A stretch of 64,000 nucleotides of DNA from a virus (IMGVR_UViG_3300024350_000006), one strand, 5' to 3'; counted from the first letter of the stretch, positions 9,375-60,688 are shown. Notes: a model not told the origin generated them from the letters alone. Numbers and translations are program-made.

Positions 9375-9438
9375 TTGACAGAAACTGGCTGAATAGCATA
9401 CTATATGCTTATTCTACCAGTTTTTTTACCTATAAATA
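9375..9438 (+). promoter_or_regulatory. Sigma70-like promoter (TTGACA...TACTAT) followed by T4-type late promoter TATAAATA
   Basis: ttgaca at 9375, tataaata at 9431. Confidence 0.6.
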
Positions 9439-20231: not shown

Positions 20232-21485
20232 ATGAACATCAAGAGGCAAAAACTGGGATTCATCGGCATCGGAAAACTGGGCTTGGACTGTGCTGAGGTT
20301 ATGGCCACCAAACACGACGTTTGGGGATACGATATCTATCCCAGAACCAGTGACACAGTAAACGTCTGTGGCATTCAAGAACTTGTAGAGAACAGCGACT
20401 GGATTTTCATAGCAGTTCCTACACCACACGCCCAGGGATATGACGGCAGTGTACCCAGCAGCCATATGGAACCCCGAGACTTTGGTCACGATGCAGTCTA
20501 TGATGCTATTGATAACATCAATAAGTATGCCAGCACTAGCAAGAAGGTGGTTCTAATAAGCACAGTATTACCAGGCACCACACGCAAAAACTTTATTACT
20601 AGACTAGATCCCAAACACCAATTCCTATATAACCCCTACCTTATTGCTATGGGTAGCGTAAAGTGGGATATGGTCAATCCAGAAATGATTATGATTGGCA
20701 CCGAGGATGGTAGTTTGACTGGTGTGGCTGGAGAACTTCGAGAACTCTACGATACAGTTATGGAAAATAATCCACGTTACGAGATTGGTACCTGGGACGA
20801 GTGTGAAGCAATTAAAATTTTCTATAATACCTTTATTAGTGCAAAAGTTGGTTTAGTCAATATGATTCAGGATTTCGCTCTACGCATTGGTAATATAAAT
20901 GTCGACGTAGTAACTAATGCCCTATCCAAATCCACTATGCGTATTATGGGACCTAAGTATATGACTGCGGGTATGGGGGATGCCGGAGCCTGTCACCCAC
21001 GTGATAACATTGCACTACGCTGGCTGGCAAAAGAATATGACATTGGCTACGATTTGTTTGACACTGTTATGCACGCCAGAGAAATTCAGGCTAAAAATCT
21101 TGCAAAATTTTTAGTAGATACAAGCAAACAAAATGGCGAATTACCCATTGTAATACACGGTAAAGCCTACAAGCCAGATGTAGAATATTGTATTGGTAGT
21201 TACAGTACGCTCGTGGGTTTTTATGTTAAAGAACTAGGATACAATGTAGTCTATGTTGATCCACTAGCAGACGATCCCAGTGAAGTGGTTAATAATGTAG
21301 ATCAGGCCAGCGTATTTCTCTGGGCACATAATAGGCGTATTACCTACGAATACACTGGTGAACAGGAAGATACGAAACCCTATTGTAACATACTGCCTGG
21401 AAGTATAATTGTTGATCCCTGGCGTAAGTTAACTAGCACTGATAGTGTAAGGGTTATACACTACGGTAACACTAGAAAAGTTTAA
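20232..21485 (+). CDS. ugd: UDP-glucose/GDP-mannose dehydrogenase family
   Basis: GIGKLG, IAVPTP, STVLPGTT, IKIFYNTF, GACHPRD, AYKPD. Confidence 0.85.
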   Translation: MNIKRQKLGFIGIGKLGLDCAEVMATKHDVWGYDIYPRTSDTVNVCGIQELVENSDWIFIAVPTPHAQGYDGSVPSSHMEPRDFGHDAVYDAIDNINKYASTSKKVVLISTVLPGTTRKNFITRLDPKHQFLYNPYLIAMGSVKWDMVNPEMIMIGTEDGSLTGVAGELRELYDTVMENNPRYEIGTWDECEAIKIFYNTFISAKVGLVNMIQDFALRIGNINVDVVTNALSKSTMRIMGPKYMTAGMGDAGACHPRDNIALRWLAKEYDIGYDLFDTVMHAREIQAKNLAKFLVDTSKQNGELPIVIHGKAYKPDVEYCIGSYSTLVGFYVKELGYNVVYVDPLADDPSEVVNNVDQASVFLWAHNRRITYEYTGEQEDTKPYCNILPGSIIVDPWRKLTSTDSVRVIHYGNTRKV

Positions 21486-49916: not shown

Positions 49917-49942
49917 AGAGATATTTATAGGCGTAGTTTTTA

Positions 49943-55216: not shown

Positions 55217-55408
55217 TGATCACCTATGTTAGATTCTAGGTAGAAATATTTATAGTTCTAAAACTAGTGTTAAGAACTTTTGGATCATATGCTAATGAAA
55301 TCACTTAGTATAAAATAATGATTCACTGGATATGAATCTTGGGAATTTTTAGTTATAATTGGGATACATACAGAGACAGTATGTCAATTTTTATCAAGGA
55401 GAATGAAA

Positions 55409-55483
55409 ATGGCTTGGACAACACCAGCAGCACAAGATATGCGTTTTGGTTTCGAAATCACAATGTACATCGCAAATCGTTAA
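55409..55483 (+). CDS. pqqA: PQQ precursor peptide PqqA, MAWTTPAAQDMRFGFEITMYIANR (not in ORF track)
   Basis: 24 aa with W-x-x-P and GF-E-I-T-M-Y (ExxxY) motifs; AAGGAG SD; own TATAAT and terminator. Confidence 0.93.
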   Translation: MAWTTPAAQDMRFGFEITMYIANR

Positions 55484-55492
55484 TAAAAAATT

Positions 55493-55513
55493 AAGCCCCG
55501 CAAGGGGCTTTTT
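55493..55513. terminator. Bidirectional terminator between pqqA and the glycosyltransferase gene
   Basis: aagcccc-gcaa-ggggcttttt. Confidence 0.8.
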
Positions 55514-55556
55514 GCTGGTTACGAGTTCCAGCGGCGCTCTATCAACACACCCGATT

Positions 55557-56264
55557 TCAACTCCAATATTTAGAATTATTGTTATCCCAATACTTTGTGT
55601 TATTACGATTTATAAAATTTTTAATCAAATACCAAGCCATACCTAGGTATCCCATCTTTTTAAACCTACGGGAATCCTGTCCAAAATAATGATCAACAAT
55701 TTTAAACTTCTTAGGATGATACATTCTTGACAAGAAGAAATCTTCTGAAGTGGCAAATTTCTCAGGGAACCCTCCATATTCTTCAAACTTGTCTCTACGG
55801 GTCAACATAAATGCACCCACAGCAAAAGGACTAAAATATTTTAAAACGTCATTAATACCATTAAAAATCATAAATCCAATAGCTGCTCTTACATCATCGT
55901 CATAACATCTAATTTTTAATCCAACTAAATCTAAATTATTATTTTCTAGTTGTTCTACTGCGTCACGAATAGCATAATTATCGAAAAATCTCACATCCGA
56001 GTCAATAAATAATATATAGGGTGTGTTTACTAGTCTTGCTCCATTATTTCTTGCTACAGAAACAGGCCCACCATCAATAATTTCAATGTTTAAAAAGAAA
56101 CTGTTATTTTGTATAATCTGTCTTGTATTATCAGTAGAGTAATCAGCAATAATAATTCTAGTTGAACCTATTTCCTGTTTTCTAAGATCGTTAAGTAGAT
56201 GCCCGATATACTTTTCCTCGTTATAACAGGGAATCACAATTGTAATTTTATCTTTTAATCTCAT
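55557..56264 (-). CDS. Glycosyltransferase family 2
   Basis: IVIPCYNEE, STDNT, ARNNGA, LFIDSD, GAFML, EDF. Confidence 0.85.
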   Translation of the reverse strand: MRLKDKITIVIPCYNEEKYIGHLLNDLRKQEIGSTRIIIADYSTDNTRQIIQNNSFFLNIEIIDGGPVSVARNNGARLVNTPYILFIDSDVRFFDNYAIRDAVEQLENNNLDLVGLKIRCYDDDVRAAIGFMIFNGINDVLKYFSPFAVGAFMLTRRDKFEEYGGFPEKFATSEDFFLSRMYHPKKFKIVDHYFGQDSRRFKKMGYLGMAWYLIKNFINRNNTKYWDNNNSKYWS

Positions 56265-56433
56265 TTTTAAAACACTTTCCGTCAATTTTAAATGATTCAA
56301 ACTTTACCCAATAACTCATTGATTTTAAACTTTGTTCGCACGTTGTCTGATCAGGAAATTCCAGAGTTAGTTTTGCGGGAACGTCCTTTGGATCGTTTAC
56401 GTGTACCGCTATCAATATCATCAACCACATCAT
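56248..56433 (-). CDS. Small secreted two-Cys protein
   Basis: MMWLMILIAV...FPDQTTCEQ...GKC. Confidence 0.5.
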   Translation of the reverse strand: MMWLMILIAVHVNDPKDVPAKLTLEFPDQTTCEQSLKSMSYWVKFESFKIDGKCFKNEIKR

Positions 56434-57181
56434 CTTGCTCCTGTGTCCAAGTTACTATTTCCCAAGTGCCATTGTGATGTTCTACTAGAGCAGTCATTGA
56501 TTCCACCCAGTCACCGTCATTCATATACACAACACCGTCTATGTTCTTGATCTCTGCGTGATGTATGTGCCCACATATAACACCATCAAATCCACGTTTT
56601 TTACAGTATGCGGCTAGATTCTTTTCAAATTGAAATATAAAGTCTACCGCTTTCTTAACTCTTCCTTTAAGATATAGACTAAGACTCCAATAACCAAAAC
56701 CAAGGCGATGACGTATCCAGTTGAATCGTGAATTAAGTCCCAATACAAAATCATATGCACGATCTCCCAATAAAGTTAACCAGGGGGCTAGTCTAGTAAT
56801 ACCATCAAATAGGTCGCCGTGTGTAACTAGATAATGCTTCCCATCAACACCAATATGTTCAAATTGATTATGTAATTCCACCATTCCAAAATTTAAATTA
56901 TACTGCAAAAAGGGTCTTAAAAATTCATCGTGGTTACCAATTATATACACAACTCTTGTGTCACGCTTTGCGTGACCTAAAATACGTCGAACAACGTTGG
57001 TGTGGCTTTGTTTCCAACGCCATTTGTTTTGCTTGATTTTCCAAGCATCTATAATGTCACCTACTAGATAAAGAGTTTCACAGGTGTTATGTTTCAAAAA
57101 ATTATTGAGTGCTTCAGCTTTACAATCTTTAGTACCTAGGTGAACATCACTAATAAAAATACTACGATAAGTTTTGTTCAT
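56351..57181 (-). CDS. plcP: PlcP-type metallophosphoesterase (phospholipase C; LpxH2-like family)
   Basis: RSIFISDVHLG, LVGDIIDAW, GNHDEFLR, HGDLFD, YWSLS..LK..VK.AV, DGVICGHIHHA, NDGDWVES. Confidence 0.78.
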   Translation of the reverse strand: MNKTYRSIFISDVHLGTKDCKAEALNNFLKHNTCETLYLVGDIIDAWKIKQNKWRWKQSHTNVVRRILGHAKRDTRVVYIIGNHDEFLRPFLQYNLNFGMVELHNQFEHIGVDGKHYLVTHGDLFDGITRLAPWLTLLGDRAYDFVLGLNSRFNWIRHRLGFGYWSLSLYLKGRVKKAVDFIFQFEKNLAAYCKKRGFDGVICGHIHHAEIKNIDGVVYMNDGDWVESMTALVEHHNGTWEIVTWTQEQDDVVDDIDSGTRKRSKGRSRKTNSGIS

Positions 57182-57186
57182 ACAAA

Positions 57187-57221
57187 TATTTAAGGTTTAC
57201 CAAATTACAAATCCATTACAT
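57187..57221 (-). promoter_or_regulatory. Pho-box-like promoter of plcP
   Basis: Minus strand atGTAATggat-ttGTAAT-N11-TAAATA. Confidence 0.65.
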
Positions 57222-57256
57222 AGTCAATAAAAAAGCCCCTTTCGGAGCTTTTTTAA

Positions 57257-58681
57257 TTAGAAGTTCAATTGACTTCTAAACATTATGGCTCGATCACCAG
57301 TTACTCGACCACCTGCAGAGCCTACAAGTTGATCAAACTGCGTGTCAACATAGTTAAGCATAAATCTCATATTATCAGTAGCGAACCAAGTTAGACCGTA
57401 GGTAATAGCTGTAGCACGATTTGATTTACCTGTAGCTACGGTGATGTCGCTAGCATCAAACTCGCTTAAACGTACACCTATTTGCCAGGCACCGCGACCA
57501 CCTTTGTCTAGAGGATTGTTGGGTTTAACTGCACCGAACACTCCATCCTTGTAGTTATAACCTTCGCCTGTCAGGTTGTACACAGCCAATACATAGTAAC
57601 CTTTAATTTCCTTATCTGCACCTGTTGTAGGATCATATTTAAAATTAAATTGTTCTGCTTGTACTTTGAATGCGTTATAGGCAAATGCAGCTTCTAGACC
57701 TTGACGTGTTCTTGTAGTGATGCCACCGAGTGCTGGACCAGTAAACCAGGCATTTTGTGAGCGTGATTCTGTCCTAGCACTAGCAGGTGTTACACCACCT
57801 TTTATCTCACCTGTACTGTAAGCAGCACCCAAATGAGCAACATACGTCTTACTGCCAGTAAGATCAGCAATGTTAGTAGTAACACGACCAATATAGTCTA
57901 GACCATCTGATACAGCATCTTTGTTGCCACGACCACGACTTACTGCTAGAGCGTAAGTTAATCCAGTTTTTGGTACACCGTGTAGCATAAATCCAGTTTC
58001 TTTTGCGGGAATTAGTTCGCCTTCCGCTTGACCAACTAGGCTGCGTTCCATCATATCAATGTTGTTAGAACTTTGTAGTTGTTCAAGACTGAATGGCATC
58101 TTGAACAAACCAAATTGGTATTGTAGTTCTGGATTAGCAGCATAGTTGACCCAGGCTACGTCCATATTAGTTGACGAACTAGCTGCACCTACATCGTTAC
58201 CAAAGTTACCAACTAGTTCGTATTTGAAGTCTTTGGCAAATTGTCCACGCACTCCAAAACGTGCGCGGCGCATTTCTGCTAGGTCCTGATACGAATCCGT
58301 GGTTTGACCTGCACCGTAAGTCGGGGAGTATTGACGATAGTCCATATGTAGTCGACCTGTAAGCTGAATGGTATTGTTGCCATCTTTGCTTTTGAGACCG
58401 ATTCCGTTTTCTGTGACTGCGCCGTCGTTGACTCTTGCGATTCTATATTTGTTTGATTCGCTGACATCCTTGTCTATTCTTTGTTCTATGAACTTACGGT
58501 TTTCTGCTCGTTCTTCGTGAGCTTGTACTTTACTGTCATATTCACTCTGCGTCAATATACCTTTGTCCTTTAAAATTTTTAAAGTATCAAGGTAATCGTC
58601 TGCATAGGCTGGTACACAAAATGCAAGACTAAAGGCCAGAGCTAGTGTTGTTAATTTTTTCATTTTTTTCCTTATTTCCAA
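57257..58681 (-). CDS. Phosphate-selective porin (OprO/OprP family)
   Basis: Signal peptide, GRLHMDY, RRARFGVRG, GLFKMPFSLEQLQSS, C-terminal QLNF. Confidence 0.82.
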   Translation of the reverse strand: MEIRKKMKKLTTLALAFSLAFCVPAYADDYLDTLKILKDKGILTQSEYDSKVQAHEERAENRKFIEQRIDKDVSESNKYRIARVNDGAVTENGIGLKSKDGNNTIQLTGRLHMDYRQYSPTYGAGQTTDSYQDLAEMRRARFGVRGQFAKDFKYELVGNFGNDVGAASSSTNMDVAWVNYAANPELQYQFGLFKMPFSLEQLQSSNNIDMMERSLVGQAEGELIPAKETGFMLHGVPKTGLTYALAVSRGRGNKDAVSDGLDYIGRVTTNIADLTGSKTYVAHLGAAYSTGEIKGGVTPASARTESRSQNAWFTGPALGGITTRTRQGLEAAFAYNAFKVQAEQFNFKYDPTTGADKEIKGYYVLAVYNLTGEGYNYKDGVFGAVKPNNPLDKGGRGAWQIGVRLSEFDASDITVATGKSNRATAITYGLTWFATDNMRFMLNYVDTQFDQLVGSAGGRVTGDRAIMFRSQLNF

Positions 58682-59697
58682 ATTGTTGTATTGTCTGGAC
58701 CTTTAAGATCCTTTTTCCAGTTATCCTGTACTAACTTGATAACTGACTGTGGCAAGTGAACATACTCTAGCTCTTCACTCATCTTAGCACCGTTCTTATA
58801 ACTCCAGTCAAAGAATTTAAGAATTGCACGACCTGTTAGTGCATCAGTTTGTTGCTTGTGCATTAAAATAAAACTTGCACCTGTAGCTGGCCAAGCATCC
58901 TTACCTTTTTGATCTGTTAGCAACAAATACATTCCTGGAGCATTAGCCCAGTCTGCATTAGCTGCTGCCGCTTTAAATGTACTATCATCTGGTTGTACAA
59001 AATTACCATCACGATTTTTTAATTGTGCATAGGCAATTTTATTTTTTTTAGCAAAGGCATATTCAACATAACCAAACGAACCTTTAACACGTTGAACGTT
59101 AGCTGCCACGCCTTCGTTACCTTTGCCGCCTACGCCCACTGGCCATTTAACTGCGGTGCCCTCACCAATGGCCTTTTGAAATTCGGCATTAACTTTACTT
59201 AGATAGTTTGTCCAAATAAATGTTGTGCCCGATCCATCTGCACGATGAATAACTGTAATATTGATTGCAGGTAGATTAACACCAGGATTCAAATCAGCAA
59301 TTGCTTTGTCATTCCATTTTGTAATCTTACCTAGATGTATATTAGCAATGACATCGCTGGTTAGTTTAAGTTGTCCAGGTTGTACTCCATCTAGATTAAA
59401 CACAGGCACTACGCCTCCTATGATGGCAGGGAACTGTACAAGTCCTTCTTTATCTAATTCCTCAGGCTTTAGTGGCATATCACTGGCACCAAAATCAACT
59501 GTCTTGGCTTTGATTTGACGAATACCGCCACCTGAACCAATTGATTGATAATTTAATCCAATACCAGTTGAAGCTTTATAAGCCTCGGCCCATTTAGAAT
59601 ATATTGGATAGGGAAAGGTAGCACCTGCTCCAGTTAGGTCTGCTGCCTCAGCGGATATAGCTAGTGAGGAAAACAATACCAATAAAAACTTTTTCAT
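58672..59697 (-). CDS. pstS: Phosphate ABC transporter substrate-binding protein PstS
   Basis: GAGATFPYP, QSIGSGGG, DFGASD, HRADGSGTT, GKGNEGV, GYVE. Confidence 0.95.
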   Translation of the reverse strand: MKKFLLVLFSSLAISAEAADLTGAGATFPYPIYSKWAEAYKASTGIGLNYQSIGSGGGIRQIKAKTVDFGASDMPLKPEELDKEGLVQFPAIIGGVVPVFNLDGVQPGQLKLTSDVIANIHLGKITKWNDKAIADLNPGVNLPAINITVIHRADGSGTTFIWTNYLSKVNAEFQKAIGEGTAVKWPVGVGGKGNEGVAANVQRVKGSFGYVEYAFAKKNKIAYAQLKNRDGNFVQPDDSTFKAAAANADWANAPGMYLLLTDQKGKDAWPATGASFILMHKQQTDALTGRAILKFFDWSYKNGAKMSEELEYVHLPQSVIKLVQDNWKKDLKGPDNTTIWK

Positions 59698-59713
59698 ATA
59701 TAATCTCCATTTA

Positions 59714-59766
59714 ATGTGCATTGCACAAAAATATTTAAACACAGGCATATTACCGTTTAATTACAA
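59714..59766 (-). promoter_or_regulatory. Pho-box-like promoter of pstS plus TGTGCA-A-TGCACA palindrome
   Basis: Minus strand ttGTAATtaaa-cgGTAAT-N11-TAAATA, then TTGTGCAATGCACAT. Confidence 0.65.
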
Positions 59767-59856: not shown

Positions 59857-60090
59857 ATGAAAAACAACATAGTATTTTATCTTAAATGGTTTGCAACATT
59901 TATTACTATTGTGGGCGCAGTATGTACGGCACTGAATATCTACCCCGCCAGTCCCATTTTGCTTAGTATAGGCAGCGTGGCCTGGCTGGCTGTAAGTATT
60001 ATCTGGCGTGAATGGAGTTTAATTGTAATTAATGCAACTCTGTTAGCAATTTATACAGTATTACCTCTAGTAAAATACTTCTTGCTATAG
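59857..60090 (+). CDS. Small 3-TM membrane protein
   Basis: LKWFAT...NIYP...W.EWSLIVIN. Confidence 0.6.
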   Translation: MKNNIVFYLKWFATFITIVGAVCTALNIYPASPILLSIGSVAWLAVSIIWREWSLIVINATLLAIYTVLPLVKYFLL

Positions 60091-60232
60091 GAGCAACAAA
60101 TGATCTGGATATTTGTTATATTTTTGTTAATAGTTATCTGGGGTTACTTTGCCCATAAAGACGGCTCAGGACATAGTTGACAAAATGGTGCCTTTTTGCT
60201 AGACTGTAATTACAGTGAAGAAGGAGCCTAAA

Positions 60233-60688
60233 ATGAAACGAGGCGAATTGTTAGATAAAGCACTACTAATTGCCACTAATGCCCATCACGGACATTTTGA
60301 TAAAGGTGGCGCACCATACATTCTGCATCCGCTTAAAGTTATGCACTATCTAAAAAGCGATGACGAAGAATTAATGGCAATGGCACTTATGCACGATGTA
60401 GTGGAAGACACCAGCACCACCTACACAGACCTTCGTGAAGCTGGTATGACAGAAAGAGTCATTGCTGGTGTAAGGGCACTTACCAAAGTTCCTGGGGAAA
60501 CTCTAGATGAGTACAAGGAAAGAATATTCGCAAACAAAGATGCTATGCGTGTCAAATCAGCAGACCTTAGACACAACAGCGATATCCGCCGCCTCAAGGG
60601 CGTAACAGAAAAAGACATTGCCCGTATCGCCAAGTACCATACTTTTTATCTGGAAATTAAAGAACGCCTGGCAGCTATTAAAGAGTAA
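60233..60688 (+). CDS. HD-domain protein (RelA/SpoT hydrolase/Mesh1-like)
   Basis: AHHGHFDKGGAPYILHP, MHDVVEDT, LTK, VKSADLRHN. Confidence 0.8.
   Translation: MKRGELLDKALLIATNAHHGHFDKGGAPYILHPLKVMHYLKSDDEELMAMALMHDVVEDTSTTYTDLREAGMTERVIAGVRALTKVPGETLDEYKERIFANKDAMRVKSADLRHNSDIRRLKGVTEKDIARIAKYHTFYLEIKERLAAIKE

Follow-up and report, generated by a model that had tools for sequence, protein, structure and literature searches.

A freshwater phage cassette joining pstS and a phosphate porin to a PlcP-family esterase and a glycosyltransferase: a possible route to host membrane phosphorus

To our knowledge, the phosphate-stress genes known from phages (pstS, phoA) act on uptake, and the question raised by a four-gene cassette in the large uncultured freshwater phage IMGVR_UViG_3300024350_000006 is whether a phage may also draw on the phosphorus held in the membrane of its host. 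The cassette lies in a 64,000-nucleotide stretch of this phage (hereafter the window), where genes for the phosphate-binding protein PstS, an OprO/P porin, a PlcP-like metallophosphoesterase and a GT2 glycosyltransferase follow one another in the same direction on the minus strand across 55.5–59.8 kb. All four co-oriented genes had been named in an original prediction made from the DNA alone, and all were recovered here by profile scores and by reading of the minus strand. We read them, with a probability of about 0.6, as a phosphate-stress cassette of two transcription units, each placed behind a host-type Pho box, that mines the phosphorus of host membranes. The model for such a function is bacterial, where PlcP together with a glycosyltransferase constitutes a Pho-regulated route of lipid renovation (PMC4796936, PMC8528852).

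The esterase gene (plcP; 56351–57181, minus strand) encodes a 276-residue metallophosphoesterase of the PlcP (LpxH2) type, a predicted phospholipase C, that matches the calcineurin-type families PF00149/PF12850. It resembles LpxH, the UDP-2,3-diacylglucosamine diphosphatase, in its calcineurin-type metallophosphoesterase fold, inserted cap region and alignable N-terminal motifs, but model scores, the tree and the presence of true LpxH in the same genomes set it apart as a separate family. Against the LpxH equivalog model NF003743 the phage protein scores 43.9 bits, where the cut-off is 134. Each of five bacterial genomes has one true LpxH (227–332 bits) and one paralogue scoring 36–56 bits, and it is these low-scoring paralogues that are 50–55% identical to the phage esterase. 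When 1.8 billion cluster representatives were searched with the esterase, a large family at 40–55% identity was returned, and a genome scan gave named carriers at 48–59% identity in Burkholderia, Paraburkholderia, Limnohabitans, Acidovorax, Pseudomonas, Azospirillum and many others. The metallophosphoesterase motif set (DxH, GD, GNHD/E, HGD, GHxH) is complete in the phage protein, and D12, H14, G41, D42, G82, N83, H84, D85, H121, G122, H205 and H207 are invariant in 45 family members that include it.

A maximum-likelihood tree of 121 sequences shows the same division. LpxH is set apart on a long branch with a support of 100, and all 35 phage sequences form one clade (support 99) that is nested inside bacterial PlcP and is sister to a protein of Pelagibacter phage Mosig and one metagenome-assembled genome (support 97). 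Membership of PlcP is anchored here by named relatives from Burkholderia, Paraburkholderia and Pseudomonas species, together with the agt genes next to them, the characterised PA3219, SMc00171, MED193_17359 and Pgt/Agt standing outside the tree; validated PlcPs are themselves 46–47% identical to one another (PMC8528852). A search of the Protein Data Bank gave no structure of a PlcP, its only matches being weak ones to LpxH at E ~1e-3.

Gene neighbourhood points in the same direction. Five examined bacterial paralogues are followed by a GT4 gene resembling agt and two by a diacylglycerol-kinase fusion, and a GT4 of the size and architecture of Agt lies directly 3' of the paralogue in Burkholderia, Paraburkholderia, Limnohabitans and Amantichitinum, as in the arrangement published for PlcP and Agt (PMC4796936, PMC8528852). 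The phage neighbourhood likewise fits a role in phosphorus-free lipid synthesis, with the GT2 gene 3' of plcP in the window and an Agt-like GT4 gene in 30 of the 80 sister-phage loci (L001–L080) that served for comparison. Taken together, the low LpxH score, the tree and the agt neighbourhood of the bacterial relatives place the gene in the PlcP family. The original prediction had taken it for a PlcP rather than an LpxH and had proposed a phylogeny against both; that phylogeny, the family scores and the bacterial gene neighbourhood all bear this out. We conclude that the esterase, judged by its sequence relationships, is a member of the PlcP family and not LpxH, and that it probably has phospholipase C activity.

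The closest known counterpart is the bacterial PlcP-Agt operon, represented by SMc00171 of S. meliloti, MED193_17359 of Phaeobacter, PB7211_983/960 of SAR11, PA3219-PA3218 of P. aeruginosa and the operon of B. cenocepacia (PMC4796936, PMC8528852, PMC13691135). The phage cassette shares with it the esterase family, a glycosyltransferase directly downstream and an upstream Pho box, and sister phages carry the Agt-like GT4 itself. It differs in lying in a lytic-type myophage, in using a small GT2 of the GT-A fold in place of the GT4 Agt and in being joined to pstS and a phosphate porin, and the phage version is known from its sequence. In two Burkholderiales metagenome-assembled genomes (L084:6117–7292 and L105:5788–7308) the gene after plcP encodes a long protein with a prokaryotic diacylglycerol-kinase domain at its C-terminal end; an enzyme that makes diacylglycerol is here unusually paired with one that consumes it.

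The glycosyltransferase (55557–56264, minus strand) is a small, phage-specific GT2 of 235 residues and a candidate diacylglycerol glycosyltransferase. It scores 81.6 bits against the general GT2 family PF00535 and, lower, 33.8 bits against PF13506 (GT21; cut-off 21.7), the model through which it was compared with processive diacylglycerol glycosyltransferases (Pgt). PF13506, the model for ceramide and diacylglycerol glucosyltransferases, is passed by 32 of 32 aligned GT2 members. The predicted structure has a GT-A fold (mean predicted local distance difference test score, pLDDT, of 87) and lacks a membrane-spanning helix, and the tail is rich in Trp, Tyr and Lys. That the protein might be Agt was rejected, since Agt is a GT-B enzyme of about 340 residues with Glyco_transf_4 and Glycos_transf_1 domains. 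In a protein atlas the GT2 falls in all-viral clusters, and no homologue was found among isolated phages.

What links this enzyme to PlcP is its position. Of the 27 viral loci recovered with the GT2 as query, 25 have a readable flank, and in every one of these the GT2 gene is adjacent to plcP; the adjacency holds at GT2 identities of 25–89%, including pairs at 42–46%, and in a group with 25–29% GT2 identity the gene order has become pstS-GT2-plcP. Among the sister loci the gene 3' of plcP encodes a GT2 in 38 and, in the 30 already mentioned, a GT4 of 331–337 residues. The GT4 of L001, one of the loci closest to the window by plcP, shares 40% identity, across its whole length, with an agt-like gene product of Burkholderia, and the arrangement there is pstS-porin-plcP-GT4-element, against pstS-porin-plcP-GT2-element in the window, the last component being an RNA element described below. 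The presence of an Agt-like GT4 in the same slot of sister cassettes and the strict linkage of GT2 to plcP across deep divergence strengthen the inference that GT2 makes a glycolipid. Diacylglycerol is accordingly our best reading of its acceptor, at roughly even odds.

Several observations weigh against this acceptor. In 80 bacterial plcP loci no GT2 homologue was found within 5 kb, and a profile search of 300 Gammaproteobacteria genomes returned only GT2s at 25–30% identity, none of them beside plcP. A fold search with the GT2 model gave generic GT-A neighbours that act on teichoic acid or glycans. One phage locus (L325) has both a GT2 and a GT4 beside plcP, so that the two enzymes need not be equivalent. 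They speak for a reading in which PlcP is a phospholipase C and GT2 acts on something other than diacylglycerol, adding for instance a second sugar to a glycolipid made by a host enzyme, or modifying lipopolysaccharide or another envelope glycan (for receptor masking) or the released head group: the enzyme has no counterpart beside bacterial plcP, its nearest solved folds belong to enzymes of teichoic acids and oligosaccharides, and GT2 and GT4 side by side in one phage would be expected if they catalyse successive or different steps. We consider such an acceptor unlikely, though deserving real weight, because it sits poorly with the strict adjacency of GT2 and plcP, seen in 25 of 25 readable loci and in two gene orders, with the exchange of GT2 for an Agt-like GT4 in otherwise syntenic cassettes and with the match of all aligned members to the GT21 model.

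A homologue of UDP-glucose/GDP-mannose dehydrogenases (phrog_9148; PF00984 and PF03721) is encoded at 20232–21485 on the plus strand, 35 kb from the cassette, and could supply UDP-glucuronate. In bacterial PlcP-Agt systems, glucuronosyl-diacylglycerol is made with UDP-glucuronate as the sugar donor.

We turn now to the control of the cassette. A Pho box consists of two 7-bp direct repeats placed 11 bp apart, which replace the -35 element and lie about 10 nucleotides upstream of the -10 element. The motif GTAAT-N6-GTAAT-N11-TAAATA, searched for with up to one mismatch, has exactly two matches in the window, at 57187–57219 and 59732–59764, both on the minus strand; over 100 dinucleotide-preserving shuffles the number of matches averaged 0.00. 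The two copies precede plcP and pstS, one for each transcription unit. The pstS promoter (59732–59766, minus strand; an exact motif match) reads TTGTAAT-N4-CGGTAAT, 11 nucleotides, TAAATA, and is followed by a 34-nucleotide leader with a GGAG site; its second half-site, CGGTAAT, differs from TGTAAT by one base. The plcP promoter (57187–57221, minus strand; likewise exact) reads ATGTAAT-N4-TTGTAAT, 11 nucleotides, TAAATA, 5 nucleotides, ATG, which suggests that the plcP message may be almost leaderless. It can be seen that the predicted boxes fit the expected geometry, with two repeats, an 11-bp period and about 10 nucleotides to the -10 position. A promoter scan found no -35 hexamer at either the pstS or the plcP promoter, and PhoB-activated promoters likewise lack one. 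The identical geometry at the two genes, which had been the basis of the Pho-regulation claim in the original prediction, therefore stands, with two matches in 64 kb where none is expected.

Related phages and bacteria use similar promoters. Among 66 distinct upstream regions of sister plcP genes, 30 have yTGTAAy-N4-yTGTAAy followed by 10–11 nucleotides and TAAATA, and before pstS a tandem repeat with TAAATA is present in 13 of 20 sister upstream regions; some sister phages have the classical half-sites TGTCAT or TGTCAC. The 12 Burkholderiales pstS promoters that were read (from genes whose PstS is 64–76% identical to that of the phage) all have tandem half-sites, a gap of 10 nucleotides and a -10 hexamer, the half-sites being TGTCAT or, in several, TGTAAT or TGTAAC. 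Since half-site sequence and spacing agree with these promoters, the phage motif is taken to be a host-type Pho box. When the DNA preceding 80 bacterial plcP genes was searched with a strict Pho-box pattern, only 2 gave a match, an uninformative result given the GC-rich genomes and uncertain gene starts.

The promoters also have features that tell against control by PhoB. TAAATA, at 57187–57192 and 59732–59737 on the minus strand, is the same hexamer with which the late promoter TATAAATA ends, a promoter that occurs in the window at 9431 and 28040 (plus strand) and at 49929 and 55254 (minus strand). The hexamer is invariant but makes a poor sigma-70 -10 element, and its distance of 5 nucleotides from the plcP ATG is that seen at the true late promoters of the window. 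Of the sister plcP upstream regions, 20 of the 66 have no Pho box of their own and carry the two-hairpin element instead; the remaining 16 fit neither pattern, although many of them retain a single good half-site. Because TAAATA equals the end of the late promoter, control need not be by PhoB alone, and a dual promoter, early through PhoB and late through the phage's own machinery, is possible from the arrangement of these elements. The Pho-regulation proposed originally is thus upheld as far as the half-sites and spacing shared with Burkholderiales pstS promoters are concerned, and qualified in that PhoB may not act alone.

Taken to its limit, the same evidence would make the conserved promoter the phage's own, of late or middle type, independent of PhoB and switching the cassette on in every infection. 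The invariant TAAATA and the short gap to the ATG, both shared with the TATAAATA promoters, speak for it. We nevertheless think it improbable, as the tandem half-sites are confined in 64 kb to the two phosphate units, match bacterial pstS Pho boxes in both sequence and spacing, and take the classical TGTCAT/TGTCAC form in some sister phages.

A different conserved site, the near-palindrome AAAAAAAATTC-N4-TTGTGAC-GGTTCC-GTTACA, stands in place of the Pho box in some sister phages, upstream of pstS in L005, L012, L014 and L025 and upstream of plcP in L032. The loci that have it are those in which the two-hairpin element, and no promoter, precedes plcP.

The first unit begins with pstS (58672–59697, minus strand), which encodes a periplasmic phosphate-binding protein of 341 residues. 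Its score of 434 bits against NF008171 exceeds the equivalog cut-off of 339, it scores 393 bits against TIGR00975, and a signal-like sequence is visible at the N-terminus of the translation; identity to PstS of Burkholderiales genomes is 60–76%. The porin gene starts 8 nucleotides past the pstS stop (57257–58663, minus strand) and encodes an OprO/OprP-family phosphate-selective porin of 468 residues with a signal peptide. The match to PF07396 (157 bits, E = 1e-45) spans model positions 1–345 of 370, and the protein is predicted to be anion-selective. The porin is present in 12 of the 80 sister loci at 65–82% identity and in two further loci at 32–34%, and a search of isolated phages gave no match. 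For three of the four cassette genes open reading frame calling gave longer frames, and shorter starts were adopted, that of pstS from the GGAG site and signal peptide, that of the porin from its signal peptide and that of GT2 from the alignment of homologues.

Between the porin and the plcP promoter lies a terminator-like hairpin with a GNRA loop (AGCTCC-GAAA-GGGGCT, followed by a T run; 57226–57252, minus strand), which was read from the sequence and is not listed by the consensus terminator scan. As it separates the porin from the esterase, the cassette divides into two units, pstS-porin and plcP-GT2. The second unit ends at an intrinsic terminator (55493–55510), identified by the terminator scan and by reading, that it has in common with pqqA, a convergent gene of 24 codons (55320–55513, plus strand) for which the terminator is bidirectional.

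From these parts a mechanism can be proposed. In a phosphate-starved host, phosphorylated PhoB would turn on both units. Through the first, PstS and the OprO/P porin would allow more phosphate to be captured by way of the host's own PstCAB transporter, and through the second, PlcP and GT2 would remodel the membrane. PlcP would remove the phosphate-bearing head group from phospholipids to leave diacylglycerol, host phosphatases would then release the phosphate for phage DNA synthesis, and GT2 would most likely glycosylate the diacylglycerol, so that a phosphorus-free glycolipid replaces the lost bilayer lipid until lysis. The presumed benefit to the phage would thus be phosphorus from the host membrane.

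The cassette is not peculiar to this phage. More than 593 viral contigs encode a PlcP that is 77–89% identical to the protein of the window, related proteins number thousands in metagenomes, and the gene and its linkages are conserved over hundreds of phage contigs. Isolated phages have few homologues, and those records that are annotated call an LpxH-type enzyme. Besides Mosig, matches come from Synechococcus phage S-SRM01 (37% identity), an unannotated human faecal record (43%) and an uncultured 595-kb phage record (28%). The sister of the phage clade, Mosig_00120 of Pelagibacter phage Mosig EXVC030M (MT647606.1), is 50% identical and is divergently paired with pstS. That phage differs in infecting marine SAR11 and in having neither a glycosyltransferase gene nor a porin gene next to the homologue, and Mosig_00120 is annotated as a 'putative UDP-2,3-diacylglucosamine hydrolase' (LpxH) and is not discussed as a PlcP. 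Large freshwater phages with amoC likewise have a phosphate-selective porin, oprP (bioRxiv 10.64898/2026.06.18.733297); in that preprint the porin is host-like and serves host assignment, and the text is without pstS, PlcP, phospholipid or glycosyltransferase. A literature search of partial coverage found no paper describing a phage PlcP.

If the databases were right to label the esterase LpxH, acting with GT2 to alter lipid A or lipopolysaccharide synthesis, the Joint Genome Institute (JGI) naming of its homologues, the fact that its solved relatives are all LpxH structures and the placing of lpxH among lipopolysaccharide genes in virome surveys (PMC10653327, PMC9611531) would all be explained, but we regard this as very improbable, since the LpxH model score is far under the cut-off and equal to that of the non-LpxH paralogues in genomes that have a true LpxH, the solved structures match only at the marginal E-value given above, a long and fully supported branch runs between the families, and the gene is found together with pstS, Pho boxes and genes resembling agt.

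Directly after the GT2 stop lies the two-hairpin element (53 nucleotides; 55509–55561, minus strand), which is the sole match in the window to our covariance model R1 (55.8 bits, E = 3.8e-11). In an alignment of 28 distinct copies, paired cells make up 98.6%, compensatory changes are seen in 6 of 10 pairs, and in 500 shuffles the covariation score never came up to that observed; the conserved segments are AATCGG, GATA and CCGTAACC. Rfam gave no match at the gathering or E-value threshold. The covariance model finds at most one element in each of the loci searched (L001–L080 and L185–L263), always on the plcP strand, and located either directly after the stop of the porin, pstS, GT2 or GT4 gene (usually with a terminator next) or 7–8 nucleotides before the plcP ATG. 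Other phages have the element between regA and hsp20 and behind a further (general) porin gene, and the idea that it is specific to phosphate genes was rejected because of these copies. Its role may be that of a signal for RNA processing or stability, or it may mark the junctions between modules.

The phage itself is a T4-like, Melnitz-like freshwater myophage of lytic type. The surrounding DNA encodes rIIA, an endolysin and other phage families, the window has a beta-type two-piece transfer-messenger RNA and T4-type late promoters (TATAAATA), and there is a distant match at the DNA level to Methylophilales phage Melnitz. These features agree with the phage context ascribed to the cassette at the outset. 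Divergent from pstS, at 59857–60688 on the plus strand, are genes for a small DUF6552 protein and for a protein with an HD_4 (RelA/SpoT-type HD hydrolase) domain, the latter of which may be a further gene that manipulates the host stress response.

A precedent for phage phosphate genes under host control comes from cyanophages. Zeng and Chisholm are said to have reported in 2012 that the cyanophage phosphate-stress genes pstS and phoA come under the control of the host PhoBR system. The present cassette resembles the cyanophage case in having a phage pstS behind a host-type Pho box, with the same logic of acquiring more phosphate while infecting starved hosts. It differs in that the presumed host type here is a freshwater betaproteobacterium, in that an outer-membrane porin and a lipid-remodelling pair have been added and in that, as predicted from its genes, an internal phosphorus store would be tapped besides uptake.

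More tentatively, and at somewhat less than an even chance, the findings may extend to a general statement: that a large and widespread group of freshwater and marine myophages turns host phospholipids into glycolipids and so releases phosphorus for phage DNA, by means of a phage-specific GT2 representing a new kind of diacylglycerol glycosyltransferase, that the viral 'lpxH' is a phospholipase, and that an undescribed structured RNA processes or controls the message. Remodelled membranes alter phage attachment and grazing (PMC9938194, PMC9457565), and the cassette may for this reason have effects on superinfection. The GT2, specific to phages, may prove to be a new lipid glycosyltransferase. 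Virome surveys count the esterase gene, which is common, under the lipopolysaccharide label lpxH, so the functional make-up reported for aquatic viromes would have to be revised. Membrane lipid is a sizeable store of phosphorus in small aquatic cells and, if our reading is true, a phage PlcP with its glycosyltransferase would represent a second phosphorus strategy, the mining of the host membrane, beyond uptake.

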